Notes: generated by a model not told the origin, from the letters alone. Counted from the first letter of the stretch, positions 5,171 through 29,636 are shown. The stretch is 64,000 nucleotides of DNA from Mycobacteriales bacterium (GCA_036558285.1 DATBFW010000145.1:19214-83213); one strand, 5' to 3'. Numbers and translations: made by a program.

Positions 5171-5186
5171 TTCCGGCTAGCCGGGA
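5171..5186. promoter_or_regulatory. CTAG-centred palindrome, site D (TTCCGGCTAGCCGGGA)
   Basis: 15 of 16 match to the consensus TTCCGGCTAGCCGGAA derived from seven copies in this window. Lies 69 nt upstream of the AlkA-like start (minus strand). Confidence 0.5.
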
Positions 5187-5355
5187 CCTCGGGATTCCGG
5201 TGACCGGGAAGGCGAGATGGGTGTCAGCGCTGCTGAAAACCGCCCCGAAAACGGGCCGAGTGTCGAAAGCCGAGCGAAGGCCGCCCGCGAGGCCACCGAG
5301 GCAGTGGCCACGGGACCGCGGGGTCGCACCAACTGGACCCGCGGGGTCCGGCGGG

Positions 5356-5529
5356 GCGTTGATCATCGTCTCGGTGTTCTTCGTCTTCCGGCAGATCACC
5401 GGCATCAACGTGCCGTTCTACTACGGCCCGACCCTGCTCGGCCCGATCTTCGGCGGCACCGGCAGCCTCCTCAACCAGACGGTCGCCGGCCTCGAGGTCA
5501 CCGCCATGCTGGCCGCCGTCAACGTCGTT
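5356..5529 (+). pseudogene. Fragment of an MFS sugar-porter gene
   Basis: ALIIVSVFFVFRQITGINVPFYYGPTLLGPIFGG..NQTVAGLEVTAMLAAVNVV resembles the QQ(L/F)TGIN..YY.P loop/TM7-8 region of sugar porters. There is no N- or C-terminal remainder in any frame. Confidence 0.55.
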
Positions 5530-5664
5530 AGGGCGGCGGGCGCGTCGACCGGCCCCGGCGACACCCCGACCGCGGCCGTCCGCAGCGACGCCCACTGACT
5601 GCGACGCCGGCCCCCGAGTGGCCCGGACGCACACCGACGCTGCGCCGTTCTCGGGCCGCGGCCG

Positions 5665-5850
5665 ATGACGGAGAGCCGACGCAGTGGGCGTGGGATCGGC
5701 TACGTGCTCAAGCGCCGGGTGGCGGACGTGGCGGGTTCCTGGACACGATCGAAGCACGTACGGAGCATCCTGGCGAAACTGAGCCTGTGCGAGGTCGACG
5801 ACGACCACCGCCGGGTGCTCGCCGTGCTCACCTTCCTCGAGGCGTCCTAA
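5665..5850 (+). pseudogene. Remnant of a NarL/LuxR-type response regulator (decayed paralogue of 11991-12650)
   Basis: GYVLKRRVADV...KHVRSILAKLSLCEVDDDHRRVLAVLTFLEAS parallels GYLLKDRVVDM...EKHVRSILAKLDLPETEDDHRRVLAVVTFLGAR of the intact gene. The receiver domain and most of the HTH are missing. Confidence 0.65.
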
Positions 5851-5855
5851 TGGCC

Positions 5856-6218
5856 CTAGCCGGCGAGCAGGTCGCGGATCGCGCCGGCGGACAGCGAGAT
5901 CTTCGGGATGAACCCGACCGCGGGGCTGGCGGCGATCAGCTCGGCGTAGTCCTCCTCGGGATGGGTCGAGATCAGGATCACCGGCGGCGCCGCCGGGCCG
6001 CCGGCGTCGTGCAGCCGGTGGCTCAGCTCGAGGCCGCTCTCCCCGCCCAGGTCGATGTCCATGAGCACGACGTCCGGACGCAGATCCGCCGTCTGCCGCA
6101 GTGCCTCGGCACCGGTCGACGCCACCCCGGCCACGGTGATCCCCTGCAGCTCGAGCAGGCCGCGGGCGGCAGCGAGGAACTGCGGACTGTCGTCGACGAC
6201 CAGGCAGCGCAATTCCAT
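5856..6218 (-). CDS. Single-domain response regulator (REC only), paralogue 1
   Basis: MELRCLVVDDSP..RPDVVLMDIDLGGESG..PVILISTH..VGFIPK carries the acidic pocket, acceptor Asp, Thr/Ser and Lys positions. No output domain. Confidence 0.85.
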   Translation of the reverse strand: MELRCLVVDDSPQFLAAARGLLELQGITVAGVASTGAEALRQTADLRPDVVLMDIDLGGESGLELSHRLHDAGGPAAPPVILISTHPEEDYAELIAASPAVGFIPKISLSAGAIRDLLAG

Positions 6219-6252
6219 GACTCGATCGTGCAAGGCCGGCCTCCGGCATGCA

Positions 6253-6268
6253 TCCCAGCTACCTGGAA
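6253..6268. promoter_or_regulatory. CTAG-family palindrome, site F (TCCCAGCTACCTGGAA), degenerate
   Basis: 12 of 16 to consensus. Lies 35 nt upstream of the REC-only start 6218, in the same relative position as site E before the paralogous gene. Confidence 0.4.
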
Positions 6269-6283
6269 GGCAGACGGTAGCGT

Positions 6284-7207
6284 TCAGACGACCTCGGCGG
6301 CGGGGTCGAGTTTGACGTCGATGAGCAGCGGCCGGTCCCGTTCGGCGATGACCTTCGCCAGCTGCGCCAGGTCGGCCGCCGTACGGACGGTGACGCCGGC
6401 GCCGCCGAGCGCGTCGGCGACCGGCGCGAGGTCGGGCCACGGGATGAGGCTGAGGCCGACGTCGTGGCCGCGACCCCGCAGGTTGTCGCGCTCGGCGCCG
6501 TAGGCGCCGTCGTTGCAGACGACGGTGATCAGGTCGACGCCGTGCCGGACGGCGGTGTTGAACTCGGTCAGGCCGCCGAGCATGAAGCCGCCGTCGCCGA
6601 CCACGGCGACCGTCGGCGTCTCCGGCCGGGCGCAGGCCAGACCGACGGCCGTCGCGAGGGCGTTGCCGATCGCGCCGAACGCCCGGCCGGGGAAGGACCA
6701 CTGTTCCGGCCGCGGCACGTCGAGCCGCTTCACCGGTACGGACATGAACCTGCCGCCGTCCACGACGACCGAGCGGTCGGGCGGCAGCGCCGCGTTCAGC
6801 GCGTCCATCGCGGCGTCCAGGTCGACGAACTCGCCGGGCCGGCTGCTGCGCCGGCTGACCGGCTCCTCCCACCGCCCGGTCTGCGCGTGCCCGCGCCGGG
6901 CGGTGGCGGTGTCGGCGACGATCAGCACGATCGGCGCCCGTTCCCGGACCGCCGAATACAGCGTGCCCATCGCATTGGCCAGGCCCGGTCCCTGCGTCAC
7001 GGTGGCCACCCCGACCCGGCGGCACCCGAACGCGTACCCGGCCGCCATGAGCACCGACCCCGCCTCGTGCGCGGCCGCGACGTACCGACCGCCCTCGTCG
7101 GCGGTGAAGCTGTCGACGAGATAGACGTTGCCGTCGCCGACGAGACCGAACATCGTCGTGACGCCGTGGTCGGCCAGGGCGGCGGCGAGGGCGGCGTGCA
7201 CCTTCAT
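6284..7207 (-). CDS. Thiamine-diphosphate-dependent enzyme, short form (PYR + PP domains, no central domain)
   Basis: The N-terminus MKVHAALAAALADHGVTTMFGLVGDGN..AAHEAGSVLMAAGYA..TQGPGLANA is PYR-domain-like. The C-terminus VVGDGGFMLGGLTEFNTAVRHGVDLITVVCNDGAYG is the ThDP-binding GDG..N motif. At 307 aa it is much shorter than acetolactate-synthase-like enzymes. Confidence 0.75.
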   Translation of the reverse strand: MKVHAALAAALADHGVTTMFGLVGDGNVYLVDSFTADEGGRYVAAAHEAGSVLMAAGYAFGCRRVGVATVTQGPGLANAMGTLYSAVRERAPIVLIVADTATARRGHAQTGRWEEPVSRRSSRPGEFVDLDAAMDALNAALPPDRSVVVDGGRFMSVPVKRLDVPRPEQWSFPGRAFGAIGNALATAVGLACARPETPTVAVVGDGGFMLGGLTEFNTAVRHGVDLITVVCNDGAYGAERDNLRGRGHDVGLSLIPWPDLAPVADALGGAGVTVRTAADLAQLAKVIAERDRPLLIDVKLDPAAEVV

Positions 7208-7296
7208 GCCGCCGCCCCCGCCAGCGGCAGGAACGCCGCCGGCCGCGGCAGGCTCCCGGAGTGGGTCGTCAGGATCCGGTTCGACGCTGGCTCCAT
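7204..7296 (-). pseudogene. N-terminal 30-codon stub of a MetE-like (cobalamin-independent methionine synthase family) gene
   Basis: GAGGAGAG RBS, then MEPASNRILTTHSGSLPRP (family-typical start), then unrelated sequence and a stop overlapping the next gene's ATG (ATGA). Confidence 0.5.
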
Positions 7297-7422
7297 TGCG
7301 CGCTCTCCTCGTGCGGGACGCGGACACATCACATGCGGTTCCGTACGGCTTCGACGTCGTCGGCGGCGACGGCGAGCCGGGCCGGATCGAGGCCGGCCCG
7401 CTCGACCTGCAACAGCAGCCCG

Positions 7423-7602
7423 GACAGCGTCGACGAGATCGTGCGGGACGTCCGGGAGGCGTTGCGGTTCATCCCGGCCGAGAACCTGATCCTGTCCAGC
7501 GACTGCGGGTTCGGCCGCCAGGGCCTGAGCCGGCTGGTCGCCTTCCACAAGGCCGAGGCCCTCGCCCAGGCGGCCGCGACCGTCCGCGCCGACCTGCCCT
7601 GA
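7423..7602 (+). pseudogene. C-terminal fragment of a MetE-like gene, on the opposite strand to its N-terminal stub
   Basis: DSVDEIVRDVREALRFIPAENLILSSDCGFGRQGLSRLVAFHKAEALAQAAATVRADLP matches the family C-terminus (..lspdCGf..). The upstream part of ORF 7261-7602 is Arg/Ser-rich and looks non-coding. Confidence 0.6.
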
Positions 7603-7626
7603 GCCGCCGGCACCGCCCGGATCGAC

Positions 7627-9549
7627 TTAGTCGTACAGGCGGAGGTCGGCGACGCTCCACCAGCTGCCCGACGACCCGGTCGAGACCACCCGCAGGTAGC
7701 GGGCGTGGGTCCGCGGGACGTCGATGGCGGTGAGCTGGCCGGTGCCGGTCCCGCTAGCCAGCGTTCGCCAGCCGGCGGCGTCGTTGCTGGCCTGCAGGGT
7801 CCACGAGCGGGCGTAGTCCCCGGTGCTGGCACCGGTGTCGAGGACGACCCGGCGGAAGGCCTCCCGGCGGCCGAGATCGACCTGCAGCTGCTGGCCGGGC
7901 TCCTGCGCGGTGTCGGTCGACCACCGGGTGGACGCGTCGTCGTCGACCGCGCCCTGCGGCGTCTCGCCGGTCGGCGTCGCGGTCACCGTCGCCCCGTTCA
8001 GCGGCACCAGGTCGTACCCGTCGTCGAGCTGGCGGCTGCGCGGCCAGGTGAAGGTCGCCAGCGCCCCGCCGGGCAGCGTGTAGTCGAACGACCGGCCGCC
8101 GACCGCGACCGCGAACGTCCGCGGGTCGTCGTTCTCGTTGTGCACGACGAGCGCGGTCGAGCCGTCCGGGTTGCGGAACGCGACGTCCATGATCTGGCCG
8201 TTCCAGCCGGTGGTGCCGAAGGACGTGCTGGCGATCCGGACCGCGCCCGGCTGCACGAACTTCGACAGGTGGCCGATCGTGTAGTACTCGGCGTTGGTGG
8301 ACACCGTGCCGTCCGCCTCGAGGGTCAGCAGCCCGGTGCAGGTGTCGCAGCCGCCGTTGTGCGGGCCGCCGCTGGAGTCGAGCGCGATGTTCCAGGTGAT
8401 CGCGGTCTTCGCCCAGTTGCGGGTGGTGCCGATGGTGATGTTGCGGGCATGGAAGGTCAGCGTGTCCCGGAAGAACTTGGCCGGCGGGTCGTCCGGGCCG
8501 TGCGAGCCGGAGCACTCGGTGAACCAGATCCCCTTGTCCGGATAGGCGTCGTGCAGCGCGGTCTGCGCGCTCGGGTCACCGGAGTAGCAGTGGTAGGCGG
8601 TGCCGGCCACCCACTTCGCGGCGGGGCTGGCGAGCACCTCGTACGGGTAGTCGGTCTCCGGATCCTCGCCCGGCGGCGTGCTGGCGATGTCGCCGGGGTG
8701 GGTGGTCCAGTTGTGGTCGTACGCCAGGATCCTGGTCCGCAGACCGGCCGCCCGCAGCGCCGGCCCCACCGCCTCGATGAGCTTGACCTCCTGCGGCACC
8801 GGCAGGTCCATGCCAGGGTAGGCGTTCGGGGTCCGGTTCTGCGGCTCGTTCTGCACGGTGAGGTAGTCGACCGGGACGCCGGCGGCGCGGTACGCCTGGA
8901 CGAACTTGACGAAGTAGCGGGCGTACGCGGCATAGACGCGCGGGTCGTCCTTGAGCCGGCCGCCGATGAGGGAGTCGGTGGTCTTCATCCACGCCGGCGG
9001 GCTCCACGGGGTGGCGATCACCGTCACGCGCGGATTCAGCGCCCTGGCCCGGCGCAGCAGCGGCAGGATCTGCGCCTGGTCGTGGGCGATGCTGAAGTGC
9101 GCCAGCGCGAAGTCGGTCTGCCCGGCGGGCATGTCGTCGTAGGTGTAGTGCGGCTCGTCGGTGAAGTCCGAGGACCCGATCGGCTGGCGCAGCGCGCTGA
9201 CGCCGATCCCCCGTGCCGGATCGAACAGGCTGCGCATCGCCCGCTCGCGCGCCGCCGGGTCGAGCCGGTAGAGCACGGCGGCCGACGAGTCGGTGATCGA
9301 CGCTCCGAACCCGTCCATCGTCTGGTAGGTCCGGCTCGGGTCGACCGTGATCGTCAGCTCCCCGCTCCGCTGGGTGCCGAACGCGACGGTGCCGCGGTCG
9401 TGCATCAGCTCGGCCCGGTCGGGCGAGGTGACCCAGACCCGCGCGGTCGGAGCGGCACCGCCGGGGTCGGCGCTCGCGGCAGCGGGTGGGACGACCGCCG
9501 CGGTCAACGCGACCGCACCGACGACGACGAAGAAGCGACGTTGCCTCAT
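7627..9549 (-). CDS. Secreted glycoside hydrolase family 30 enzyme with C-terminal F5/8 type C (CBM32-like) domain
   Basis: Signal peptide MRQRRFFVVVGAVALTAAVVPPAAASA. TMDGFGASITDS, YLTVQNEPQ (acid/base Glu) and IWFTECSG (nucleophile Glu). C-terminal AVDDDASTRWST..YLRVVSTGSSGSWWSVADLRLYD. The ORF 7627-10479 upstream extension is rejected. Confidence 0.9.
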   Translation of the reverse strand: MRQRRFFVVVGAVALTAAVVPPAAASADPGGAAPTARVWVTSPDRAELMHDRGTVAFGTQRSGELTITVDPSRTYQTMDGFGASITDSSAAVLYRLDPAARERAMRSLFDPARGIGVSALRQPIGSSDFTDEPHYTYDDMPAGQTDFALAHFSIAHDQAQILPLLRRARALNPRVTVIATPWSPPAWMKTTDSLIGGRLKDDPRVYAAYARYFVKFVQAYRAAGVPVDYLTVQNEPQNRTPNAYPGMDLPVPQEVKLIEAVGPALRAAGLRTRILAYDHNWTTHPGDIASTPPGEDPETDYPYEVLASPAAKWVAGTAYHCYSGDPSAQTALHDAYPDKGIWFTECSGSHGPDDPPAKFFRDTLTFHARNITIGTTRNWAKTAITWNIALDSSGGPHNGGCDTCTGLLTLEADGTVSTNAEYYTIGHLSKFVQPGAVRIASTSFGTTGWNGQIMDVAFRNPDGSTALVVHNENDDPRTFAVAVGGRSFDYTLPGGALATFTWPRSRQLDDGYDLVPLNGATVTATPTGETPQGAVDDDASTRWSTDTAQEPGQQLQVDLGRREAFRRVVLDTGASTGDYARSWTLQASNDAAGWRTLASGTGTGQLTAIDVPRTHARYLRVVSTGSSGSWWSVADLRLYD

Positions 9550-9632
9550 CGAAAGGCCCTTCGGTCCGAAAGGGGCACCAGCTACCCGACTGTTACCCAG
9601 CCCCGGCCCCTGGCTACCCCGGGCGGACCCGG

Positions 9633-10100
9633 TCAGAGCACCGGGCGGAGGGGCGGCTCGTGCGGTCCGTACCGGGAGCGCAGCACGGCCGAGACGGCGC
9701 GACGCAACGCGGCGACGTCGCCCGGCCCGGCGACCTGCGCCCACCCGTCCTCGATCGCCCGGTACGCCGCCTCCGCGTCGGCGAGGAACCGCCGCCCGTC
9801 CGCGGTGAGCCCGAGGACGGCGGCCCGGCGGTCGCCGGGATCCTCGCGCCGCTCGACCAGCCCCTCGTCGACGAGCGAGGAGACCACCTTCGCCGCGGCC
9901 TGCTTGGTGACGCCGAGCAGCTCGCCCACCGCGCCGATGTTGCGCGGCCGGTCCCGCAGGGCGAGCAGCACGAAGCCCCACATCGGCCGTGCCCGCGGCC
10001 ATCCCGCGTCGGCCAGCCGCTCGTGCAGCTCGTCGACGACGGCGGCCAGCGCCATCGCCAGCAGCCGCCCGAGCGGCTGGTCGCCGACTACAGCGCCCAC
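9633..10100 (-). CDS. MarR family transcriptional regulator
   Basis: Winged-helix region IGAVGELLGVTKQAAAKVVSSLVDEGLVERREDPGDRRAAVLGLTADG. The GTG start overlaps the stop of the upstream cupin gene (GTGGGCGCTGTAG). Confidence 0.9.
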   Translation of the reverse strand: MGAVVGDQPLGRLLAMALAAVVDELHERLADAGWPRARPMWGFVLLALRDRPRNIGAVGELLGVTKQAAAKVVSSLVDEGLVERREDPGDRRAAVLGLTADGRRFLADAEAAYRAIEDGWAQVAGPGDVAALRRAVSAVLRSRYGPHEPPLRPVL

Positions 10101-10462
10101 GGCGGGGTGAACGGCTCCTCGCCCGGCATCCGTGCCTGACCGCCCACCGGGAGGTACGCGAGGGCGACCACGGGTTCCGTGCCGACCGCGGCCAGGCTGA
10201 ACGGGGTGTTGGGCGGCACGATGATCGCGCCGCCGGCCTCGACCTCGGCGACCCGGCCGCCGATCGAGGCGCGAGCGGTCCCGGACAGGACCACCAGCAC
10301 CTCCTCACGGGTGAGCTCGTGCGGGACGGCATCGGCGTCGGGTGGCAGCTCGACCCGCCACACGCAGATCTCGGTGGATCCGGACGACGGCGCGGCGAGC
10401 GGCGTGAACCGGGTGCCGGCCAGCTCGTGGACGGACGCGGTACGGGAGTGGGCGACGGGCAT
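10088..10462 (-). CDS. Cupin domain protein
   Basis: MPVAHSRT..HELTREEVLVVLSGTARASIGGRVAEVEAGGAIIVPPNTPF has a beta-barrel cupin pattern. Translationally coupled to the MarR gene. Confidence 0.8.
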   Translation of the reverse strand: MPVAHSRTASVHELAGTRFTPLAAPSSGSTEICVWRVELPPDADAVPHELTREEVLVVLSGTARASIGGRVAEVEAGGAIIVPPNTPFSLAAVGTEPVVALAYLPVGGQARMPGEEPFTPPWAL

Positions 10463-10472
10463 GTCGGCATGA

Positions 10473-10491
10473 TAGACAACCAAGTTGTCTA
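10473..10491. promoter_or_regulatory. Perfect 8+8 inverted repeat TAGACAAC-CAA-GTTGTCTA (candidate MarR operator)
   Basis: Seen directly, 11 nt upstream of the cupin-MarR operon start. AT-richer than its surroundings. MarR proteins typically autoregulate through such palindromes. Confidence 0.5.
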
Positions 10492-10509
10492 GTGTCGAGT
10501 AGCCGGGCA

Positions 10510-10580
10510 TGGCGGCTAGCAGGAACTCCGGCACTCCGGGTGGCATGGCCGGCGGCCTCCGGCTGACCGGGCTGACAGCC
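10510..10580 (+). promoter_or_regulatory. Conserved upstream module A: CTAG palindrome (TGGCGGCTAGCAGGAA) + TGGCATGG box + GGCTGACCGGGCTGACAGCC
   Basis: Aligns base-for-base with module B (12790-12860), including an identical 21-mer, and with module C. Its first base lies 144 nt before the Ser/Thr kinase ATG. Confidence 0.5.
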
Positions 10581-10653
10581 GCGACGGGAGAGGCCATTTT
10601 TGCTTGTGTCCGGTCGAGTACGCCCGATTGTCCACAAAGGAGCATCGACCGCC

Positions 10654-11547
10654 ATGACCGCTTACTGTCCACAGCCGACGATCCGCCAGCCGCGCGCCGC
10701 GCGAGCGCGGGTTCCGGTAAGGGCGGCCCGGTCACCGGTCGGCGAGCTGCTGGCCGGCCGCTACCGGGTGGCGGAGCGGGTCGGTCACGGCGCGACCGGC
10801 GGGGTGTGGCGCGCCGAGGACGAGCTGCTCGACCGGGACGTCGCGGTCAAGCGGCTCCCCCATCGACAGCCGGAGGGGTTGGCCGAGGCCCGCATCGCGG
10901 CCAGGGTGCGGCATCCCTCGGTCGCCACCGTGCACGACCTGGTCGAGCACGACGGGTCGTCCTGGATGGTGATGGACTACTACCCGGGCGGCACGCTCGC
11001 CGCGCTGCTGCAGGAGCAGTCCCGGCTGCCTCCGCCGGTGATCGCGGCGCTCGGCCTCCAGCTGGTCACCGCGCTCGACGCGGTGCACGCCGCCGGCATC
11101 GTGCACTGCGACGTCAAGCCGGCCAACCTGGTGCTCGGTGCGGACGGCCGGCTGGTGCTGGTGGACTTCGGGATCGCCGAGGCCGGCGACGCCGGTCCGG
11201 TCAACCCCGTCCGTGACGAGGGCTTCGTCGTCGGCTCCCCGGCGTACATGGCGCCGGAGCTGGTCCGCGGCGAGACCGCGTGCCCGGCGGCCGACGTGTG
11301 GTCGCTCGGCGCGACCCTGTACGCCGGGGTCGAGGGGCGGCCGCCGTTCGCGGGCGACGCGGCGGAGATCCTCGCAGCGGTGCTCAACGACCCGCCGCTG
11401 CCGACCCGCCGGGCCGGCCCGCTGGCGCCGCTGCTCGATCGGATGCTGGCCAAGGACCCGGCCCAGCGTCCCGCTCACGAGGCGATCCGGACGGCGCTGG
11501 CGGACGTCTCCCTCGCCCCGGCCGCGGGTGTGGTCGGCCAGGGCTGA
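10654..11547 (+). CDS. Ser/Thr protein kinase, catalytic domain only
   Basis: RBS AAAGGAG. GHGATGGVW (Gly loop), VAVKRL, HCDVKPANLV, DFG and SPAYMAPE are all intact. No TM or sensor domain follows. Confidence 0.9.
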   Translation: MTAYCPQPTIRQPRAARARVPVRAARSPVGELLAGRYRVAERVGHGATGGVWRAEDELLDRDVAVKRLPHRQPEGLAEARIAARVRHPSVATVHDLVEHDGSSWMVMDYYPGGTLAALLQEQSRLPPPVIAALGLQLVTALDAVHAAGIVHCDVKPANLVLGADGRLVLVDFGIAEAGDAGPVNPVRDEGFVVGSPAYMAPELVRGETACPAADVWSLGATLYAGVEGRPPFAGDAAEILAAVLNDPPLPTRRAGPLAPLLDRMLAKDPAQRPAHEAIRTALADVSLAPAAGVVGQG

Positions 11548-11551
11548 CGAC

Positions 11552-11567
11552 TTCCGGCTAGCCGGGA
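11552..11567. promoter_or_regulatory. CTAG-centred palindrome, site E (TTCCGGCTAGCCGGGA)
   Basis: Identical 16-mer to site D. Lies 36 nt upstream of the REC-only gene start 11603, in the 55-nt gap after the kinase gene. Confidence 0.5.
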
Positions 11568-11602
11568 TGCGCGGCGGCGATCCGCCGGGCAGCGTTGTCC
11601 GC

Positions 11603-12013
11603 ATGACACTGCGGTGCCTGATCGTCGACGACAGCCCTGCCTTCGTCGCGACCGCCCGCAGCCTGCTGGAGGGCCAGGGGATGAGCGTGCTCGGCGCGGT
11701 CGCCACCGGGGCCGACGCGCTACGGCTGACCGCGGACCTGCGCCCCGACGTCGTGCTGGTCGACCTGGATCTCGGCCCGGAGAGCGGCCTCGAGGTGGCC
11801 GGACGGCTGGCCCGGTCCGCCGAACCCGCGCCAACGCCGGTGATCCTCATCTCGACCTACGCGCAGGAGGACTTCGCCGACCTCATCGCCGACAGCCCCG
11901 CCGTCGGGTTCATCCCCAAGACCGCACTGGCGGTCGCCGCCATCCGCGAACTGCTCGGCGGTCAGGGCACCGCGGACCCGACCGGGACCGTCACCGGGCC
12001 CCGAGGAAGGTGA
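11603..12013 (+). CDS. Single-domain response regulator (REC only), paralogue 2
   Basis: MTLRCLIVDDSP..RPDVVLVDLDLGPESG..PVILISTY..VGFIPK. Roughly two-thirds identical by eye to 5856-6218. An upstream in-frame ATG at 11567 is possible. Confidence 0.85.
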   Translation: MTLRCLIVDDSPAFVATARSLLEGQGMSVLGAVATGADALRLTADLRPDVVLVDLDLGPESGLEVAGRLARSAEPAPTPVILISTYAQEDFADLIADSPAVGFIPKTALAVAAIRELLGGQGTADPTGTVTGPRGR

Positions 12014-12650
12014 CGACAGCCAGCACCCGGCGGTGGTCGTCCTCGGTCTCCGGCAGGTCGAGCTTGGCCAGGATGCTGCGCACGTGCTTCTCGACGGTGC
12101 CCTCGCTCACCCACAGCCGTCTCGCGATGCCCCCGTTCGACCGGCCCTCCGCCATCAGCGCCAGCACCTCGCGCTCCCGGCCGCTCAGCCGGCCCAGCGG
12201 GTCGTGGCGACGGCGGACCATGACCAACTCCTGCACCAGGGCGGGATCGACGACCGACCCGCCCTTCGCGATGCGGTCGAGCGTGTCGGCGAACTCGGCC
12301 ATGTCGACGACCCGGTCCTTGAGCAGGTAACCGACCGCACGGCCGGTGGCCAGCAGACCCATCGCCTGCTCGACGTCGGCGTGCGCGGAGAGGACCAGGA
12401 TGCCGATCTCCGGATGCTGCTCGCGGATCTGGCGGGCGGCGTCGAGGCCCTCGGTCGTCCTGGTCGGCGGCATCCGGACGTCCACCACGACCACGTCCGG
12501 CGTGCAGTCCGCCACCAGCGCCAGCAGCTGTGTCCCGTCGCCAGCCTGGCCGACCACCTGCATTCCCGACCGCTCGAGCAGGCTGGCCATCCCCTCCCGG
12601 AGCAGGACGTCGTCATCGGCCAGGACGATCCGGAGCCCACTGCCGCCCAC
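11991..12650 (-). CDS. NarL/FixJ-family two-component response regulator (REC + LuxR HTH)
   Basis: LRIVLADDDVLLREG..DVVVVDVRMP..LVLSAH..GYLLK, then LSGREREVLALMAEGRSNGGIARRLWVSEGTVEKHVRSILAKL. Confidence 0.92.
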   Translation of the reverse strand: MGGSGLRIVLADDDVLLREGMASLLERSGMQVVGQAGDGTQLLALVADCTPDVVVVDVRMPPTRTTEGLDAARQIREQHPEIGILVLSAHADVEQAMGLLATGRAVGYLLKDRVVDMAEFADTLDRIAKGGSVVDPALVQELVMVRRRHDPLGRLSGREREVLALMAEGRSNGGIARRLWVSEGTVEKHVRSILAKLDLPETEDDHRRVLAVVTFLGAR

Positions 12651-12789
12651 CGGTCACGCTCCGGGAGCCGGGCGGCCCGCCGCCGTCGGCCGCGTCGTCA
12701 TCGGGCCATTGTCGGCGAGCGGCCGCGGACCCGGTACCCCCACGCGCAGGTACGGCCGTACACCCGGCCCGACGGACGCCGGGACGGTC

Positions 12790-12860
12790 TGGCGGCTAGC
12801 TGGAAGGCCGACGCTGCTGATGGTGTGGACGCGGCCTGGTGGCTGACCGGGCTGACAGCC
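12790..12860 (+). promoter_or_regulatory. Conserved upstream module B: CTAG palindrome (TGGCGGCTAGCTGGAA) + TGGTGTGG box + GGCTGACCGGGCTGACAGCC
   Basis: See module A. Sits in the divergent region between the NarL-type regulator (start 12650) and the cupredoxin gene. First base is 146 nt before ATG 12936. Confidence 0.5.
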
Positions 12861-12935
12861 GGGACCGGCCGCGGGATGGTCATGGCGTCGGAGGCCACGC
12901 GGCGTCCGGACAAGGGTCCGCAAAAGGGATCGGGG

Positions 12936-13358
12936 ATGTCCAGGACAGCAGTAGCCCGGATACGAGCGCGCCGCCTGCTCGTCGGGATCGTCGCCATGCT
13001 GGCAGCTCTCACGACGGTCGCCGCGTGCGGCTCGGACTCGGGCGGCGGTGGCGGCGCGACCCCGCCACCGGCCTCGGCGTCCGCGTCCAACGGATCGGCC
13101 GCCCAGGGAGGCGGATCCACGGTGGAGATCATGAACTTCATGTTCATGCCGGGCACCCTGACCGTCCCCGCCGGCACCACGGTGACCTGGAAGTTCGACG
13201 ACTCGACCCAGCACACCGTCAACGCCGACGACAATTCGTTCTCGTCGTCGCCGATGGCGAACAGCTAGACGTTCACGCACAAGCTCACGACCGCCGGCAC
13301 GGTGACCTATCACTGCTCGATACACCCGTTCATGAAGGGCACGATCGTCGTCACGTAG
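12936..13358 (+). pseudogene. Cupredoxin (plastocyanin/amicyanin-like) lipoprotein gene interrupted by an in-frame TAG at 13266-13268
   Basis: Lipobox LAALTTVAAC. VEIMNFMFMPGTLTVPAGTTVTWKFDDSTQHTV..SSPMANS-stop-TFTHKLTTAGTVTYHCSIHPFMKGTIVVT. The Cys/His/Met copper ligands lie after the stop, in the same frame. Confidence 0.75.
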
Positions 13359-16300
13359 CAGCTGGTCGTGCCAGCGGCAGCTCGGCCCGGACGGTGGTGC
13401 CGGTGCCGGGCGCGCTGGTCAGCCACATGCGGCCGCCGAGCGCCTCGACCCGGTCCTTGACCCCGATCAGCCCGGATCCGCCGTGCAGGTCGGCGCCGCC
13501 GCGGCCGTCGTCGCTCACCCGGACCCGCAGGACCCCGTCGTCCGCGTCGACGTCGACGGTGACCGCCGTGGCCTCCGCGTGTTTGGCCGTGTTGGTCAAC
13601 ATCTCGGCGACGGCGAAGTACGTGGCGATCTCGACCTGCTCCGGCAGCCGCCCACCGACCTGTACGTCGAGGCGAACCGGCACGGTGCAGCGGCGGGCCA
13701 GCACGCGCAGCGCGGGACCGAGGCCGCCCTCGGTCAGAGCGGCCGGGTGGATGCCGCGGGCCAGCTCGCGCAGCTCGCCGACCGCGGTGTCGGCCTCGGC
13801 GGCGATGGCGTCCAGCCGCGCGTCCAACTCCGCGGACCCGGCCGGGCCGGCCTCCTTGGCGATCCGGGCCTGGATCGCGAGGCTGACCAGCCGCTGCTGG
13901 GCGCCGTCGTGCAGGTCCCGCTCGATGCGCCGGCGGGTCTGGTCGGCCGCCGTGACGATCCGCGCGCGGGACGCGGTGAGCTCCGAGTACAGCTGGGCGT
14001 TGTCGAGGGAGACGGTGAGCTGGGCGGCGATGAGCCTGACCGCGTCGAGCCGCTCGCTGGTGAACGCGCCGCGGATGAGCCGGTTCTCCAGCAGCAGCAC
14101 CGCCCGGAGCGACTCGCGGCCGAGGACGGGCAGCGCCAGCACGGAGCAGCGGCTCAGGCCGGCGAAGTACGGGTCGCGGGCGAACCGGTCGTCGCAGGTC
14201 GCGTCGTCCACGACCAGCGGCTGCCGGGCCCGCCGCACGTACCGCAGCACGGACATCGGCAGGTCTGACCCGCGGCCCGCGCCGGTGCCGCCCGGGCCGG
14301 GCAGCCAGGCCTGCTCGTCCTCGCTCCACAGCACCAACCGCACGCCGGTGGCTCCGGTCATCGTGCTGACCACCTGGACGACGCGCGAGCGCAGCCGCTC
14401 GATGCTGGTCTCCGAACTCAGTGCCTGCGACGCGGAGAGGATGCCGAGCAGGTCGAGCGTGCCGGTGGTGACGGTCGGGCGCGGGCCGACCGGGGCGCCG
14501 GCCGCCGGGTCGGTGTCCGGTCGCAGCGTCGGGTGCGCCCAGTCGAGCTGGGCGACCTTCGCCGTCGCGCCCCACACCGCGTAGGCGTGCCTGGCCTGCG
14601 CGAGCAGGTCCAAGCCGGCGTGCTCGACGCCGTGGGCGAGGTAGAAGCGGGCCGCGCGCTCGTCGATCAGCGCCCGGTGCCAGGGCCGGCCGCGGCCGGC
14701 GACGGCGCGTCGGGCGGCGTCGAAGGCGAGCACGGCGATGCGGAAGTCGCCGACCGTCCAGGCGCGCTCGGCCTCGACCAGCCGCAGCAGGTGCAGGAAG
14801 TTGGCCGGCCCGTCGGCGGCGCGGGCGGACAGCCACCGGGTCAGCTCGTCCAACTCGGCCAGCAGGGCGGCCCGCTCGTCGCCGTCGGTGCCGCGGGCCT
14901 GCCCGGCCAGCGCCAGCCCGCGCAGCAGCCGGGCGACCCCGGTCGGGTAGATGCCCTGCGCCGCTGTGAGCAGCGGCGTCGCCGCCGCGGTGTGCCGCAG
15001 CAGCCCGGGCGCGTCGTCGAGGACGGCGGCCGCGATCGCCCGGTTGATGTGCGTGTAGACGAGCGCCGCCGGGTTGTCGGCCGGTCGGTCGATCGGGATG
15101 ACGTCGCCGGCCGGTTCGCTTTCCCCGCGCAGCACGCCGCCCAGCCACCGGTACGGGTCGAGCAGCTCGCCGGACTGCGCGTTGCCGGTCCGGCGGACGA
15201 AGGCCAGGCACGCCTCCACGGCCGAGACGTAGGCGTCCAAGGACGGCGACGACTCCAGCAGGCCGGCCACCTCGGTGTGGCAGGCGTATCCGGCCCAGGC
15301 CAGCTCGCCGCCCGCGACCAGGCCCTCCCTGGCCCGCGCGGCCTCCCGGACGGCCAGCTCGATCGGCTCGAACCAGCAGCAGAGGGTGGCGAACGACGCG
15401 CGCACCAACGACGTCTCCGGCTCGAAGCCGCGGGACTCACCGAACGCCAGCGCGTACCGCATCGCCCGGTAGCCGACGGCGTAGTCGCCGCGCAACGCCA
15501 TCACGGCGTTGGCGGCGTGGGTCGCCGGGCCGATCAGGGACCGGCCGGGGCCGTGCTCCAGCCAGATCCGTACCGTCTCCAGGCTCAGCCACGCGTACAG
15601 GGAGAAGTCCGACGCGAAGAAGGCGGGCGGCAGGATCGCGTTGGTCAGCCGGGTCCCGGCGAGCAGCGCCGGATCGGTGATGTCCGGCCGGGCCGGGCCG
15701 GCAGAGCCCTCGACGTGGTCGAGCCACCGGTAGAGGTGATCGACCTGGGCGTCGAGCTCGGCCGGGAACCGCTCGGCGGTCGGAACGGCGATGCCGAGGT
15801 CGCGCAGCGCCGCGACGCCGAGAGCGACCGCGTCGGCGAAGCGGTTGCGGTGCGTCAGGCTGCTCAGCTGCACCGCCGTCGCGTCCGCCCGCTCCAGCGC
15901 GAGCGGGCACATCCCCTCGAGAATGCCGTACTCCTCGTCCGCCTCCTCCAGCCGCCCGAGGCCGAACAGGGCGGCGTGCCGGCGGGTGTGGATCTCGACG
16001 AGCGCGTCGGTCCGGTCGTCGTCGACGAGGGTCAGCGCGGCGCCGAGCAGGGCGCACACCAGCGCGTGGTCGGCCAGCGACCGGGCGCCCTCGGCCGCGC
16101 GCCGCAGCAGCTCTACCACCCGCTCCCGCTCGGCCGGGTCGTCCAGCGCGTCGATGACCGGCAGGTACTGCTCGGCGGCGACCGCGCACAGCTCGGGCAC
16201 CGGCGCCAGCCGGCGGGCCATGGTCAGGTGCAGGTCGCGTCGCCGGTCCGGGCCGAGGCCGCGGACGATCGCCTCCTGGATGCGGTCGTGGCGGAACCGC

Positions 16301-18267: not shown

Positions 18268-18353
18268 GCTCGGACCTGGGCGCGGCTCCCGCCGTGCCTA
18301 CGCCCGCCCCACCCACTCGCGCAAGAGTGGCACCCAAGCCCGGCCCAACGGCA

Positions 18354-18427
18354 TACCAGCTAGCCGGAAGGGCGAGGCTGCGGATGGCATGGACCCCGGT
18401 AGGCGGCTGGCCGGGCAGACGGCAGCC
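18354..18427 (+). promoter_or_regulatory. Conserved upstream module C: CTAG palindrome (TACCAGCTAGCCGGAA) + TGGCATGG box + GGCTGGCCGGGCAGACGGCAGCC
   Basis: Third copy of the module, in the divergent region between the giant kinase gene and the LuxR solo. First base is 133 nt before ATG 18487. The GGCTG/CAGCC arms are kept although the loop is 3 nt longer. Confidence 0.5.
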
Positions 18428-18486
18428 GTGCCGGCAGCGATGGTTGGTGTACATCGAGCGGAGCGGTGCGACACCGGAGGTAGCTC

Positions 18487-18981
18487 ATGACCGCGGCAAC
18501 GGCCCCGCCGGACGTCCTCGACGGCAGCGCGCCGCTCCCGGGCGGCGGCCCGGCCGGGGACCTGCGGGCCGTGTTCGGCGACCTGATGCGGCTGCACGCG
18601 GAGGCGGCCGGGATCCAGGCCGAGGCGCGCCACCGGGTGCCGCACGACCTGGACGAACGGCTCGCCGGGCTCGCCAGGGGTCTCGGCCGGGCCGCCGGCC
18701 GGCTGTCGTCCTCCTACCCGTCCCCGCACGCCGTCCGGCCCGTCGGGTCCGTCCGGCCCCGTCACTGGCAGGGGTGGGCTGCGCTGACCCCGGCGGAGCT
18801 TGAGGTGATCCGGGTGGTGGTGGCCGGCCGCACCAACCGGGAGGCGGCGGCGCTGCTGTTCCTGTCGCCGCACACGGTCAGCTCACACCTCCGGCACGCG
18901 TACGCGAAGCTCGGCATCAACTCCCGCGTCGAACTGGTCCGCGCGGCGGTGGCCACCGACATCCCCGGGCAGCAGCTGTAA
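18487..18981 (+). CDS. LuxR-family HTH regulator without a receiver domain (LuxR solo)
   Basis: RBS GGAGG. C-terminal LTPAELEVIRVVVAGRTNREAAALLFLSPHTVSSHLRHAYAKLGINSRVEL. The N-terminal ~95 aa has no recognisable domain. Confidence 0.85.
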   Translation: MTAATAPPDVLDGSAPLPGGGPAGDLRAVFGDLMRLHAEAAGIQAEARHRVPHDLDERLAGLARGLGRAAGRLSSSYPSPHAVRPVGSVRPRHWQGWAALTPAELEVIRVVVAGRTNREAAALLFLSPHTVSSHLRHAYAKLGINSRVELVRAAVATDIPGQQL

Positions 18982-19006
18982 CCCTGGCGGGGCTCGCGGA
19001 CATCTG

Positions 19007-19573
19007 ATGGGTATGGAGCCCGACCAGGTCGCCCGCTTCGAGCAGCTGTTCGCGGCGCACTACGGCGACCTGATGCGGTTCGCGACGCGGCGAGTGGGCG
19101 CGGATGCCGCCGGCGACGTCGTCTCCAGCACGTTCCTGGTCGCGTGGCGCCGGCTCGCCGACGTACCCGCCGATCGGAGCCGGGCCTGGCTGTTCGGCAC
19201 CGCCCGCCGGGTGATCGCGAACGAGCTGCGCGGACGCGAACGCCGTGAGCGGCTCGGCCGCCGGGTCGCGGCGCACGTCGACGTGGCGGCCGACGACCAC
19301 GCGGGACCGGTCACCGAGCAGCTGCGGGTCCGGGCCGTGCTCGGCGAGCTCCCACCGGGCGACCAGGAACTGTTGCGCCTGACCGAGTGGGACGGCCTCG
19401 ACATCGACCAGGTCGCCGCCGTCCTCGGCTGTTCCCCCGCCGCGGTGAAGGTGCGCCTGCACCGGGCCCGGCGCCGCTTCGCCAACCGGCTGGCCGCCGC
19501 CGACAGGGCCGACGAGGCCGTCGGTCGCACGGTCCGGCCGATCAGACTTCCCGAAGGGAACGCGACCTCATGA
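19007..19573 (+). CDS. ECF-type RNA polymerase sigma factor
   Basis: Region 2 (FEQLFAAHYGDLMRFATRRV..VSSTFLVAWRR) and region 4 (LPPGDQELLRLTEWDGLDIDQVAAVLGCSPAAVKVRLHRARRRF). Confidence 0.9.
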   Translation: MGMEPDQVARFEQLFAAHYGDLMRFATRRVGADAAGDVVSSTFLVAWRRLADVPADRSRAWLFGTARRVIANELRGRERRERLGRRVAAHVDVAADDHAGPVTEQLRVRAVLGELPPGDQELLRLTEWDGLDIDQVAAVLGCSPAAVKVRLHRARRRFANRLAAADRADEAVGRTVRPIRLPEGNATS

Positions 19574-20328: not shown

Positions 20329-20350
20329 CGGAGCCGGCCCGGGCCGGCCG

Positions 20351-23118: not shown

Positions 23119-23183
23119 CGTGTCGGGAGATCCGCCGGTCGGCGCCCGCCCGGGAGGGCCCGCCGCAGGAGCTGGGAGCTGAC

Positions 23184-23420
23184 ATGGACGGTGGGACGGT
23201 GGCCGTGGCGGTGGTCGACAACCGCATCGAGGCAGAGCTGATCGCCGGGCTGCTGCGCAGTCATGGCGTCCGCGCCGCGGTGACGGCGGACGACGCCGGC
23301 GGCCAGGAACCGCAGCTGCAGCTGGACGGTGTCCGGGTGCTGGTGGCCCGCGCCGACGAGACCGTCGCCCGGGAGCTGCTCGCCGCCGCCGACGACACCG
23401 ACACGACCAGCGAGCGCTAG
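23184..23420 (+). CDS. Small DUF2007-like (putative signal-transducing) protein
   Basis: RBS GGGAG. VAVAVVDNRIEAELIAGLLRSHGVRAAV..GVRVLVARADETVARELL matches the pattern of that family. Confidence 0.7.
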   Translation: MDGGTVAVAVVDNRIEAELIAGLLRSHGVRAAVTADDAGGQEPQLQLDGVRVLVARADETVARELLAAADDTDTTSER

Positions 23421-25082: not shown

Positions 25083-25123
25083 GCGGCCGACCGTACGCGG
25101 CCCGACCGGCGGCCGGGCCGGAT

Positions 25124-26179: not shown

Positions 26180-26283
26180 CGCGCCCCTCCTCCGCCGACC
26201 GCCGGTCCTCCTACACCGGTCGGGGCGGCCACGTTCCGATGGGAACCCCGGTGGCGGCAGTGGTGTAGAGGAGGCAGGCGGCG

Positions 26284-26916: not shown

Positions 26917-27682
26917 CCCGGCTTCGACATCACCGGTGGACAGCGAGCTGCGGGAGCTTAGCCGCTGGCTGGCGGTACCGCCGGAGCCCGACGTGGCGAC
27001 CGCGGTCCGGGCGCGCCTGCAGGCGGCGGGGTCGGTCGGCAGGCCGCACCACCGGCTGTGGCGGGCTGCGGCGGTGCTGGTCGCGCTCATGATCGTCGCG
27101 GCCGGGACGGTGGTCGCGTCTCCGCAGGTCCGGGCCGCGCTGCTGGACGTCCTGCGGGTCGGCTCGGTCGAGGTGCACCCCGGCCCGGCGCCGACGGCCA
27201 CCTCGCCGCCGGCGCCGGTGGTCGGCCTGCACGCGGCGTCGCTGACCGCGGCCCGGGAGTCGGCGGACTTCCACGTGCTGGTGCCCGGCGCGCCGCTGCA
27301 GCACCCGGACGAGGTGCTGGTCGAGAACGGCCCGCGACCGACGTACGTGGCGCTGCGCTACCGTGCCGGTCCGGGTCGGCCGCCGGTCAGCACCGGTGGG
27401 CTCGCGGTGCAGGTCGACGAGATCGCCGGCGACAGCACCCGGTTCTACGAGAAGTACCTCGACGGCGCCGGGGCACGCCGGGTCCGGGTCGGCGGCGCGC
27501 CGGGCGTGTGGATCGACGGGCCGCACGAGCTGATCGTGGTCGACCGGGCCGGTGAGGTCCGCGTCGAGCAGCCGCGGCTGGCCGCGAGGACCCTGGTGTG
27601 GCAGCGCGACGGCGTCACCCTCCGGCTGGAAGCGGACCTGACGCTGGCGCAGGCCCTCGCGGTCGCCGGCGGAATGCGCTGA
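26909..27682 (+). CDS. Membrane-anchored anti-sigma-like protein with DUF4367-like C-terminus
   Basis: GTG overlaps the sigma stop. One TM (AAAVLVALMIVAAGTVVA). C-terminal ..TLVWQRDGVTLRLEADLTLAQALAVA pattern. Confidence 0.7.
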   Translation: MPDPASTSPVDSELRELSRWLAVPPEPDVATAVRARLQAAGSVGRPHHRLWRAAAVLVALMIVAAGTVVASPQVRAALLDVLRVGSVEVHPGPAPTATSPPAPVVGLHAASLTAARESADFHVLVPGAPLQHPDEVLVENGPRPTYVALRYRAGPGRPPVSTGGLAVQVDEIAGDSTRFYEKYLDGAGARRVRVGGAPGVWIDGPHELIVVDRAGEVRVEQPRLAARTLVWQRDGVTLRLEADLTLAQALAVAGGMR

Positions 27683-27720
27683 CGCTCGCTGCCGGCCGAA
27701 CTCGTGTGGTAGCAAGGGGA

Positions 27721-28698
27721 ATGGCCGGCGCCCGGCCCACCCACGACCCGCTGCGCGAGCAGCGGGTGGAACGAGTTCGGCTCGGGATCTGCGAGACCAT
27801 CGTGCCGTTCGACCTCCGCGTCGGCGCGGACGAGGACTGCCGGGCCGAGATCCACTCCCTGGATCTCGGGATGATCAGGATCGTCTGCGCCGCGGGCGAT
27901 TCGCTCGAGGGCGAGGTGTTCCGTACGCCCCGGCTCATCCGCGCCTCGGATCCGGACCTGTGCAAGATCGACGTGCAGGTGCGCGGGCGGGGGGTGCTCG
28001 AGCAGGACGACCGGCAGGCCGAGCTGGGACCGGGCGCCTTCAGCTTCGTCGACCTGTCCCGGCCGTGCCAGCTGGCCGGCGGGCTCGACGGCGTGGCGGC
28101 TGTGATGTTCCCGCGCTCGCTGCTGCCGCTGCGCTACCGGGACACCAAGCAGCTCGCCGGCGTCCGGTTCGACCCGGATGAGCCCAACAGCGCGCTGGTC
28201 GGCCTGCTGGTCGGGAAGGTCGCCGGCAACCTGGACGAGCACGTCACCCCGGCGAACGTCCGGATCGGCGGGGCCATCTTCGACCTGATCGTCGCGGCGC
28301 TGTCGGTCCGGCTCGACCGGGTCGACGCGGTCCCGGCGGACACCCGGCTGCGGGCGCTGGGCTGGCAGGTCAAGAGCTTCATCGAGGCGCAGCTGGGCGA
28401 CCCCGCGCTGACGCCGGGCCGGATCGCCGCCGCGCACCACATCTCGCTGCGGTACCTGTACCGGATCTTCGAGGCCGAGCACACGTCGGTCGGCTCCTGG
28501 ATCCGCGGTCGCCGGCTCGACCACTGCCGCCGCGACCTCACCGACCCGGCGCTGGCCGGACGTGCGGTCAGCGCGATCGGCGCCCGGTGGGGGTTCGTCG
28601 ACGCCACGCACTTCACCCGCGCGTTCAAGACGGCGTACGGCGTGACGCCCGGCGACTACCGGCGTCTGTCCGTCCAGCCCGACCGATCCCGCAGCTGA
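27721..28698 (+). CDS. AraC family transcriptional regulator
   Basis: C-terminal dual HTH: IAAAHHISLRYLYRIFEAE..SAIGARWGFVDATHFTRAFKTAYGVTPGDYR. Confidence 0.88.
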   Translation: MAGARPTHDPLREQRVERVRLGICETIVPFDLRVGADEDCRAEIHSLDLGMIRIVCAAGDSLEGEVFRTPRLIRASDPDLCKIDVQVRGRGVLEQDDRQAELGPGAFSFVDLSRPCQLAGGLDGVAAVMFPRSLLPLRYRDTKQLAGVRFDPDEPNSALVGLLVGKVAGNLDEHVTPANVRIGGAIFDLIVAALSVRLDRVDAVPADTRLRALGWQVKSFIEAQLGDPALTPGRIAAAHHISLRYLYRIFEAEHTSVGSWIRGRRLDHCRRDLTDPALAGRAVSAIGARWGFVDATHFTRAFKTAYGVTPGDYRRLSVQPDRSRS

Positions 28699-28814
28699 CT
28701 GACAGCGGGCACGGGCGGCCGAGGGTTGTGCACGGCCGGCCGAGACACCGCCGCGCGCGGGCCGCCACCCTCGACCGGAGTCCGCTCGGCGGACGTCGGC
28801 GGAAGGGGCCCGGG

Positions 28815-29636
28815 GTGAGCACATACCTGTTCGATCCGACCTGGCAGAAGGAACGGGACCGGCTCGGTGCCCTGGAGGCACTGTTCGACGGCTCGTCCCG
28901 GCGGCTGTTGGCCGACCTCGGCCTGCGCGAGGGGATGCGCTGCCTCGAGCTGGGCTGCGGCGCCGGCGGCCTCGCCGTCTGGCTGGCCGACGAGGTCGGC
29001 CGGACCGGACACGTGCTGGCGACCGACCTCGACACGCGGTTCGTCGACGGGCAGGGGCGCGCCAACCTCGACGTGCTCACCCACGACGTCGTCACCGACC
29101 CGCTCACCGAGGGGACCTTCGATCTCATCCACGCCCGCGCCGTGCTGGAGCACATCCCGGCCCGGGACGACGTCCTGCGCACGCTGGTCTCCGCGCTGAG
29201 GCCCGGCGGCCGACTGCTGCTGGAGGACGTCGACTTCGGCGCGCCGACGGCACCCGCGCTCGCGCACTACTTCTCGCCGGCGGCCGTGGCGGCGCCGACC
29301 GAGCGGATCTACCTGGCTGTGGCGACCCTGTTCGCCGCCGCCGGCGCGGACGCGTCGTACGGCCGCCGGCTGCCGGCCGCCCTGACCGGCGCCGGCCTGC
29401 GGGACGTGGGTGCCGAGGTGCACGCGCCGGTGGTCAGCGGCGGCACCGAGACCTGGACGCGCGGCTCGATCGAACAGCTCGCCGACCGGCTGATCGGCAC
29501 CGGGCTGACCAGCCCGGCGGACATCGAGCTGTTCCTCGCCACGACGGCGCAGCCGGCCACGTTCTACCTGCCCCCGCTGATGGTCAGCGCGTGGGGCCGG
29601 CGCCCCGCGCGGCTGATTCCGGCTAGCGGAGGGTAG
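28815..29636 (+). CDS. Class I SAM-dependent methyltransferase
   Basis: Motif I CLELGCGAGGLAVWLA, then ATDLD and LLLEDVD. GTG 28815 chosen as start. Confidence 0.85.
   Translation: MSTYLFDPTWQKERDRLGALEALFDGSSRRLLADLGLREGMRCLELGCGAGGLAVWLADEVGRTGHVLATDLDTRFVDGQGRANLDVLTHDVVTDPLTEGTFDLIHARAVLEHIPARDDVLRTLVSALRPGGRLLLEDVDFGAPTAPALAHYFSPAAVAAPTERIYLAVATLFAAAGADASYGRRLPAALTGAGLRDVGAEVHAPVVSGGTETWTRGSIEQLADRLIGTGLTSPADIELFLATTAQPATFYLPPLMVSAWGRRPARLIPASGG
29617..29632. promoter_or_regulatory. CTAG-family half-palindrome, site G (TTCCGGCTAGCGGAGG)
   Basis: The left half is perfect and the right half is degenerate (12 of 16). It lies where two convergent genes overlap, not in a promoter, so it may be a relic. 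Confidence 0.25.

Follow-up and report, generated by a model that had tools for sequence, protein, structure and literature searches.

A putative NarL/FixJ-type response-regulator operator with DevR-like tandem boxes in a Mycobacteriales bacterium

Genes and palindromic boxes at the locus

We analysed 64,000 nucleotides of DNA from a Mycobacteriales bacterium with a metagenome-assembled genome (GCA_036558285.1, DATBFW010000145.1:19214-83213; hereafter the window), in which copies of a 16-bp palindrome centred on CTAG, here termed the box, flank the gene of a NarL/FixJ-family response regulator (11991–12653, minus strand). This protein, the proposed box binder, combines a receiver (REC) domain with a GerE helix-turn-helix (HTH) domain (Response_reg and GerE in Pfam). 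Its gene converges with that of a stand-alone receiver, a REC-only protein matching Response_reg alone (11603–12013, plus strand), and the 3′ ends of the two genes overlap by 23 nt (11991–12013). Upstream of the receiver gene lies a Ser/Thr kinase gene (10654–11547, plus strand), preceded on the minus strand by genes for a cupin (10088–10462), a MarR protein (9633–10100), a glycoside hydrolase of family 30 (GH30; 7627–about 9500), a thiamine pyrophosphate enzyme (6284–7210), a paralogous stand-alone receiver (5856–6218) and an AlkA-like HhH-GPD glycosylase (4428–5102). On the other side of the regulator gene are a small lipoprotein gene with weak cupredoxin similarity (about 12882–13268, plus strand) and a gene for a giant kinase of 1,648 residues with the domain order Pkinase-AAA_16-GAF-HisKA_3-HATPase_c (13351–18297, minus strand). 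A GerE-only protein (18487–18981) and an extracytoplasmic function (ECF) sigma factor (19007–19573) follow on the plus strand. Pfam agrees with the identities given to the flanking genes in the initial annotation (Ser/Thr kinase, stand-alone receiver, REC+GerE, GerE-only, giant kinase, cupin and MarR).

The box consensus TTCCGGCTAGCCGGAA, with up to three mismatches allowed, occurs at five sites in the window: D (5171–5186), A (10510–10525), E (11552–11567), B (12790–12805) and C (18354–18369), with coordinates and sequences as first annotated. Sites D and E carry an identical 16-mer. All five lie at 5–18.4 kb in the window, flanking the regulator gene, whereas 0.10 sites are expected in shuffled sequence and none of 100 shuffles reached five. 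Over the remaining 45 kb, neither the consensus search nor a profile of the whole promoter unit described below found a box, in line with the earlier remark that no copy with both flanks intact was seen in the second half of the window. The window has a G+C content of 73–78% and is depleted of CTAG, as had been suggested (22 copies against 63 expected); 5 of these 22 fall inside boxes. More than 70 instances define the box as a 16-bp inverted repeat, TTsCnGCTAGCnGsAA, with conserved outer TT/AA and GCTAGC core, and its half-sites are of a size compatible with binding by a dimer.

Of the seven copies initially claimed, six are real, namely A to E and F (6253–6268). Site F lacks CTAG, its minus-strand core being GTAG, but is a true homologue of E: the two lie at corresponding positions of an inverted duplication (5853–6219 and 11602–11968, 76% identical), and GTAG or TTAG cores are also present at orthologous sites in other genomes. 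We exclude the seventh, site G (29617–29632), as a chance half-match in two gene ends. Its left half alone matches, and its CTAG is the stop codon of a zf-HC2 gene (29623–30324, minus strand) inside the 3′ end of a methyltransferase gene (28587–29636).

The duplication that holds F is partly decayed. Between 5200 and 5850, a degraded copy of the receiver/regulator locus contains a sugar-transporter fragment (5320–5595), an in-frame stop (5596–5598) and a C-terminal regulator remnant (5743–5844) of 34 residues, 76% identical to residues 186–219. With just this remnant left, a complete second regulator gene is ruled out there. The receiver paralogue and box F are intact despite the adjacent decay.

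For comparison, we collected 80 loci encoding relatives of the regulator (53–77% identical) from Nocardia, Mycobacterium, Pseudonocardia, Saccharopolyspora, Micromonospora, Kribbella, Streptomyces, Streptosporangiaceae, Solirubrobacterales, Gaiellaceae and others. Loci L001–L059 (at least 60% identity, mostly with a convergent receiver gene) are termed close orthologues and L060–L080 distant; L081/L082 denote a 95%-identical relative. The convergent receiver–regulator arrangement is kept in most close-orthologue loci, and the 23-nt overlap is likewise annotated in L081, L083 and L085. In related loci, a HisKA_3 kinase 50–58% identical to the C-terminal part of the giant kinase adjoins the regulator, and the HisKA_3 part of the giant kinase is likely to be the regulator's phosphodonor. 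Full-length relatives of the giant kinase occur in L055 (65% identical) and L015; its gene is absent from L081, which has the cupredoxin and GerE-only genes side by side.

The regulator does not attain the cut-off of any NCBIfam equivalog. Among solved structures, VraR, DevR and NarL come closest to it (E 1e-24 to 1e-20), as family-level relatives only, and the database names of its relatives are generic or mis-transferred (for example, "PknK"). Searched for exactly in public assemblies, the stand-alone receiver protein gave no match.

Three-box and single-box promoters

At A, B, C and D, the 16-mer is the first and strongest of three phased boxes, the cores of which are 24 and then 23 bp apart. 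Similarity among A, B and C continues for ~80 nt downstream of the 16-mer, and 33 instances of the three-box unit from many genera align without gaps over ~100 nt. Box 1 (TTgCaGCTAGCnGGaA) is followed by an 8-nt gap, a degenerate box 2 (gtnCnGctggCnggna), a 12-nt gap usually ending in aTGGnn, a half-conserved box 3 (GCTgGCngcGanGAC), a 19-nt gap and, as the last element, a −10-like AtnnT. The end of the unit can be read as a promoter, with a −35-like xxGAC at the 3′ end of box 3, a 17-nt spacer and a −10-like nAnnnT. Placing this hexamer at −12 to −7 would centre the box cores at about −89.5, −65.5 and −42.5. The same phasing is apparent around 78 strong boxes, where further box-like matches are most frequent at offsets of +24 (25 hits) and +47 (21 hits), with 0–4 at most others.

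A profile of the unit, built with the window sequences excluded, recovers C (E = 1e-10), D (7.7e-7), A (6.8e-6) and B (2.2e-5) and has no other match below E = 0.1 in the window. All 74 other hits with E < 1e-3 fall in close-orthologue loci. We dropped two other readings of the region around box 3. A leader peptide or upstream open reading frame (ORF), suggested by a conserved ATG/TTG/GTG-GG before box 3, does not keep its frame, has an in-frame stop in L032 and shows low G+C at third codon positions; the TGG more plausibly represents the left half-site of box 3. A CAAGAT just 5′ of box 3, considered as a −10 element, was replaced by the better-conserved xxGAC, 17-nt spacer and nAnnnT downstream.

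Promoter A, on the plus strand, comprises box 1 (10510–10525), box 2 (10534–10549), box 3 with the −35-like element (10562–10576) and a −10-like CATTTT (10595–10600). It faces the Ser/Thr kinase gene, and orthologous units are present in L081 and L055. Close to A, a 19-bp palindrome of different sequence (TAGACAAC-CAA-GTTGTCTA, 10473–10491), conserved in L081 and containing one of the window's 22 CTAGs, overlaps a sigma-70-consensus promoter (10469–10498, minus strand). This promoter of the cupin–MarR operon (TCGACA, 18 nt, TATCAT, minus strand) was the only match in a scan of 3–19.6 kb for E. coli-type promoters; because the palindrome overlaps it, the palindrome is probably the MarR auto-operator.

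Promoter B, also on the plus strand, has boxes at 12790–12805, 12814–12829 and 12842–12856 and a −10-like GATGGT at 12875–12880. It precedes the cupredoxin-like lipoprotein gene, and in L081 the orthologous unit precedes a Cupredoxin_1/Copper-bind gene. A perfect 12-bp palindrome (GTACGGCCGTAC, 12750–12761), unrelated to the box consensus and partly kept in L081, lies between the regulator start codon and box B. Promoter C repeats the layout on the same strand, with boxes at 18354–18369, 18378–18393 and 18406–18420 and a −10-like GATGGT at 18439–18444, and has an orthologue in L081 (E = 2e-11). It lies upstream of the GerE-only gene, with the ECF sigma gene next; as the latter starts 25 nt 3′ of the GerE-only gene on the same strand, the two may be co-transcribed from promoter C.

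Promoter D (5171–5244, plus strand; profile match 5169–5244) consists of box 1 (5171–5186), box 2 (TTCCGGTGACCGGGAA, 5195–5210), a box 3-like element (5223–5237) and a poorly preserved −10. Site D had been listed upstream of the AlkA-like gene on the minus strand, which it does not serve: the three-box unit faces the plus strand, toward the sugar-transporter fragment and the regulator remnant. A weaker two-box promoter is tentatively placed on the minus strand at 3633–3707 (profile positions 25–98, E = 0.1), with a box (reverse complement of 3687–3702), box 3 (reverse complement of 3659–3673) and a −10-like GATCGT (reverse complement of 3635–3640). This candidate lies upstream of a hypothetical ORF (3204–3632) with no Pfam match.

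Locus L043, from a Streptosporangiaceae metagenome-assembled genome, contains at least 7 promoter units (profile E < 1e-3) within ~950–12600, and several of these have two near-perfect boxes 24 nt apart. A local regulon can thus far exceed that of the window.

Sites E and F head a second type of promoter, in which a single box precedes a stand-alone receiver gene. Box E (TTCCGGCTAGCCGGGA, 11552–11567, plus strand) is followed by 22 nt, a −10-like CAGCGT (11590–11595), 7 nt and the ATG at 11603. Box F (TTCCAGGTAGCTGGGA, 6253–6268, minus strand) stands 34 nt from the ATG of the receiver paralogue (5856–6218), with a −10-like CACGAT. Both boxes, as first noted, lie upstream of paralogous REC-only genes, at 34–35 nt before the start codons. 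Among the targets, conservation is highest for the receiver gene, with a box within 100 nt upstream in 51 of 56 orthologues, and the start codon lies 34–35 nt after the box in 34 of 50 receiver promoters. Aligned on the box, these 50 promoters give the consensus TTCCnGCTAGCnGcAATGcg, ~17 nt, gAtnCTgg, ~6 nt and ATG or GTG. The box ends 22–23 nt before the −10-like nAtnCT, and the start codon follows 6–7 nt further on. No −35-like hexamer is visible in the 50 aligned promoters; the box takes its place. A distance of only 6–7 nt between −10-like hexamer and start codon is a leaderless signature, so the receiver transcripts are probably leaderless, in which case the box would span about −50 to −35, with its centre at −42.5. 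In many other loci, for example L014, L022, L032–L034, L036 and L038, the receiver gene diverges from another gene, and its box doubles as box 1 of a three-box unit facing the opposite way.

Linkage of the boxes to the REC+GerE regulator

Strong boxes are present in 43 of 59 close-orthologue loci and in none of 21 distant loci (Fisher p = 1.3e-9). The ~1.0 Mb of close-orthologue sequence holds 74 of them, compared with 1–3 in order-1 Markov simulations. Their density declines with distance from the regulator gene, from 3.4 per 10 kb in the first 1 kb to 0 at 9–10 kb. Solirubrobacterales genomes occur in both groups, so the split between box-positive and box-negative loci is not simply taxonomic. 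The two groups differ in the HTH recognition helix: box-positive relatives have TEGTVEKHVRSIL and box-negative ones TEHTVEKHVKNIF.

The initial annotation had named two adjacent regulators as possible binders. The REC+GerE protein is tied to the boxes by this survey, whereas tblastn detects the GerE-only protein in just 1 of the 80 related loci; being so rarely beside the motif, the latter leaves the REC+GerE regulator as the candidate binder.

Boxes in related loci are also predominantly non-coding: of 66 strong boxes, 62 fall in the 31% of the sequence that a rough coding mask leaves as non-coding, which speaks against a repeat dispersed through coding DNA. They recur at orthologous promoters as well, with A, B, C and E all upstream of the same genes in L081/L082. 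Footprinting against L081/L082 was abandoned, as the intergenic regions are 70–86% identical, too close to resolve single positions. Across the loci, the boxes keep fixed distances to the start codon and to the −10-like hexamer, the core elements themselves being predicted.

To survey candidate targets, we scanned the first ORFs downstream of 61 three-box units with Pfam, using automatic ORF calls. Histidine kinases or anti-sigma-like ATPases were found in 6 cases and aquaporins in 4, followed by sugar or MFS (major facilitator superfamily) transporters, aldo-keto reductases and Ser/Thr kinases (3 each). Catalases, trypsin-like proteases, alpha/beta hydrolases and GerE regulators were found twice each, and GH13, GH15, a molybdopterin oxidoreductase and an amidohydrolase once each. 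A Dps-like and a WhiB-like protein were further targets spotted by eye. These products suggest a stress-type regulon that includes signalling genes, although the theme is loose.

Proposed function and comparison with known systems

The same sites occupy the same promoter positions beside relatives of the regulator in many genera, and the box is therefore most likely the regulator's site. We consider it probable, from the sequence comparisons above, that the boxes are activator sites for a dimer of the adjacent NarL/FixJ-family regulator. The phosphorylated regulator would occupy the strong distal box near −89.5 first and then spread cooperatively to the weaker boxes near −65.5 and −42.5, where, by analogy with the tandem boxes of DevR/DosR, the copy at −42.5 would recruit RNA polymerase. 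At single-box promoters, the box at −42.5 would stand where a −35 element is normally found. At divergent loci, one array could serve both directions, its strong box being at −42.5 relative to the receiver gene and at −89.5 relative to the divergent neighbour. The earlier proposal of an operator of a local regulon linking the signalling genes is thus supported by conservation, non-coding position and linkage to the regulator.

Several points weigh against this interpretation. The −10 and −35 assignments derive solely from conserved spacing, the −10-like hexamer is without the T that usually comes first, and a strict sigma-70 consensus scan detects none of these promoters. A spacing of 23–24 bp corresponds to ~2.2–2.3 helical turns, so the DNA faces bound by adjacent dimers would not quite coincide, in contrast to the 21-bp spacing of DevR boxes. 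The three-box seed instances were selected with a pattern that drew in part on the window's own copies A, B and C, and the ~60% boundary between close and distant loci was chosen after synteny had been seen. The survey covers the window and ~1.4 Mb of related loci near regulator genes, a part of each genome. A box lies within 300 nt upstream of the regulator gene itself in only ~15 of 58 loci; direct autoregulation of the regulator gene is thus not general, and we dropped it as a general feature.

A site overlapping −35 could repress instead, and the proximal box lies at this common repressor position. The same regulator might therefore bind and, from an occupied −42.5 box, block RNA polymerase; the fairly good −35-like xxGAC and 17-nt spacer of the three-box unit make activator-free function conceivable. 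We nevertheless regard repression as unlikely, as the receiver promoters have the box in place of a recognisable −35, the weak −10 suits dependence on an activator, and DevR, the closest studied architecture, is an activator with a −42.5 site (PMC3177182). It is less likely still that the boxes are the operator of another factor, either the GerE-only protein or an unlinked regulator, that merely co-occurs with the NarL-type gene. In favour of the GerE-only protein are its HTH of the same type and the three-box promoter upstream of its gene, and any assignment of the site to a protein is made from sequence; but, beyond the near absence of the GerE-only gene from related loci, the boxes track the REC+GerE gene across genera with a peak within 1 kb, and the differences in the recognition helix follow box presence. 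An alternative sigma factor, such as the ECF sigma factor encoded in the cluster, could in principle recognise the unit as its promoter, with the palindrome as part of the recognition sequence. The −10-like element is non-canonical, and GGAA resembles ECF −35 motifs. In both layouts, however, GGAA and the −10-like element are further apart than an ECF promoter would allow, a symmetric inverted repeat present once or three times at 24/23 bp is unlike sigma elements, and no ECF gene was called in four annotated related neighbourhoods (L081/L082, L083/L084 and L085). We judge this reading to be very improbable.

The ~80 nt shared by A, B and C upstream of genes also raised the question of a structured RNA (riboswitch, leader or small RNA), in which the palindrome would form a hairpin and the ~90-nt extension further helices, and RNAalifold proposed a long hairpin for these three sequences. 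With 33 aligned units, RNAalifold predicts 0 pairs. There is no Rfam match at the gathering score or at E up to 5, and 61% of cells pair in the box hairpin, compared with a mean of 65% for shuffles. No covariation links positions 3/14 or 5/12, half-sites such as TTGCAG...CAGGAA being common; symmetry without covariation of the variable positions fits a dimeric protein site and not an RNA hairpin. Moreover, transcripts from the promoter with the conserved −10-like hexamer would not include the unit, which is located 5′ of that hexamer. We rejected an RNA element on these grounds and see almost no chance that it is correct. Several similar copies within 13 kb and the 16-mer shared by D and E might also point to a dispersed, REP- or MITE-like repeat or to the chance clustering of a rare word. 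Such an origin is, in our estimate, just as improbable as an RNA: chance predicts 0.1 copies, none occurs in the other 45 kb of the window, and in the window and related loci the boxes cluster near the regulator. There they hold fixed promoter positions in many genera with unrelated flanks, unlike a promoter-independent repeat.

The preferred reading, activation by the NarL/FixJ-family regulator, might extend to an undescribed regulon found across Actinomycetota, a tentative idea that we hold to be possible but rather doubtful. It would comprise an uncharacterised NarL-type two-component system, a near-invariant leaderless receiver target convergent with the regulator gene, variable targets related to stress or dormancy, and an array acting as a two-way switch. 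If so, the receiver might serve as, for instance, a connector or phosphate sink that feeds back on the phosphorelay. The variable targets would include catalase, Dps, aquaporins, WhiB-like proteins, aldo-keto reductases, sugar transporters, GH13/GH15, kinases and anti-sigma-like proteins, and the 24/23-bp three-box array would be a symmetric switch between divergent promoters. The regulator family is abundant in soil Actinomycetota, with at least 7,999 relatives at E < 1e-40 among 8,000 candidates scored. Literature searches by motif words and by a description of the system found no account of the regulator family, the motif or the system. With a defined operator, a predicted promoter architecture and candidate targets, the system is testable and the regulon can be predicted in any carrier genome.

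By sequence, we class the boxes as a probable NarL/FixJ-type response-regulator operator with a DevR-like tandem-box architecture. Other members of this regulator family also bind inverted repeats. The ComA box of Bacillus subtilis, TTGCGG-N4-CCGCAA, is a 6-4-6 inverted repeat with an unspecified spacer, bound by a NarL/FixJ-type dimer. Many boxes here read TTGCAG-CTAG-CTGCAA or TTGCGG-CTAG-CCGCAA and are thus similar, but their central CTAG is strongly conserved, and phylum and regulon also differ. The 7-2-7′ heptamer pairs of NarL and the LiaR/VraR boxes are likewise inverted repeats bound by GerE-type HTH dimers, with half-site sequences and spacing different from those described here. A stand-alone receiver gene is not known to be a conserved first target in the NarL and LiaR/VraR systems, unlike here.

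The closest parallel is with the Dev boxes of the Mycobacterium tuberculosis DevR (DosR) dormancy regulon, which likewise has a NarL-subfamily regulator and HisKA_3 kinases with GAF domains. Like the boxes here, Dev boxes are palindromic and tandem, comprise primary and degenerate secondary sites and are used at divergent promoters. DevR promoters have 2–4 tandem boxes, one conserved primary and the others degenerate secondary, and binding is cooperative and dependent on helical phasing and spacing, with sites at −42.5 and −63.5 at tgs1-Rv3131 (PMC3177182). The DosR dimer is reported to contact sigma region 4 and the alpha subunit (PMC13486717). A proximal −42.5 site is known for DevR at tgs1, whereas the position here derives from predicted promoter elements; cooperative binding, a feature of DevR, is here a proposal.

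The initial annotation had likened the palindrome to DosR boxes, a likeness that holds for the tandem NarL-type architecture and not for the Dev box sequence. The DevR half-site is GGGACT (G4G5G6A7C8T9, PMC3177182), whereas the boxes here have TTsCnGCT around a CTAG centre, with no GGGACT found. Box length also differs (18–20 bp for DevR, 16 bp here), and the regulator, with only family-level similarity to 3c3w (phmmer E = 2.7e-22) and no NCBIfam equivalog, is no orthologue of DevR. A single box never occurs at DevR promoters (PMC3177182), whereas E and F have one only; elsewhere, unlike these lone boxes, the E-type receiver box often heads a divergent three-box array. The centre-to-centre spacing is 21 bp for DevR and 24/23 bp here, and this 23–24 bp spacing would make the system another natural setting in which to study how NarL-type regulators activate cooperatively.

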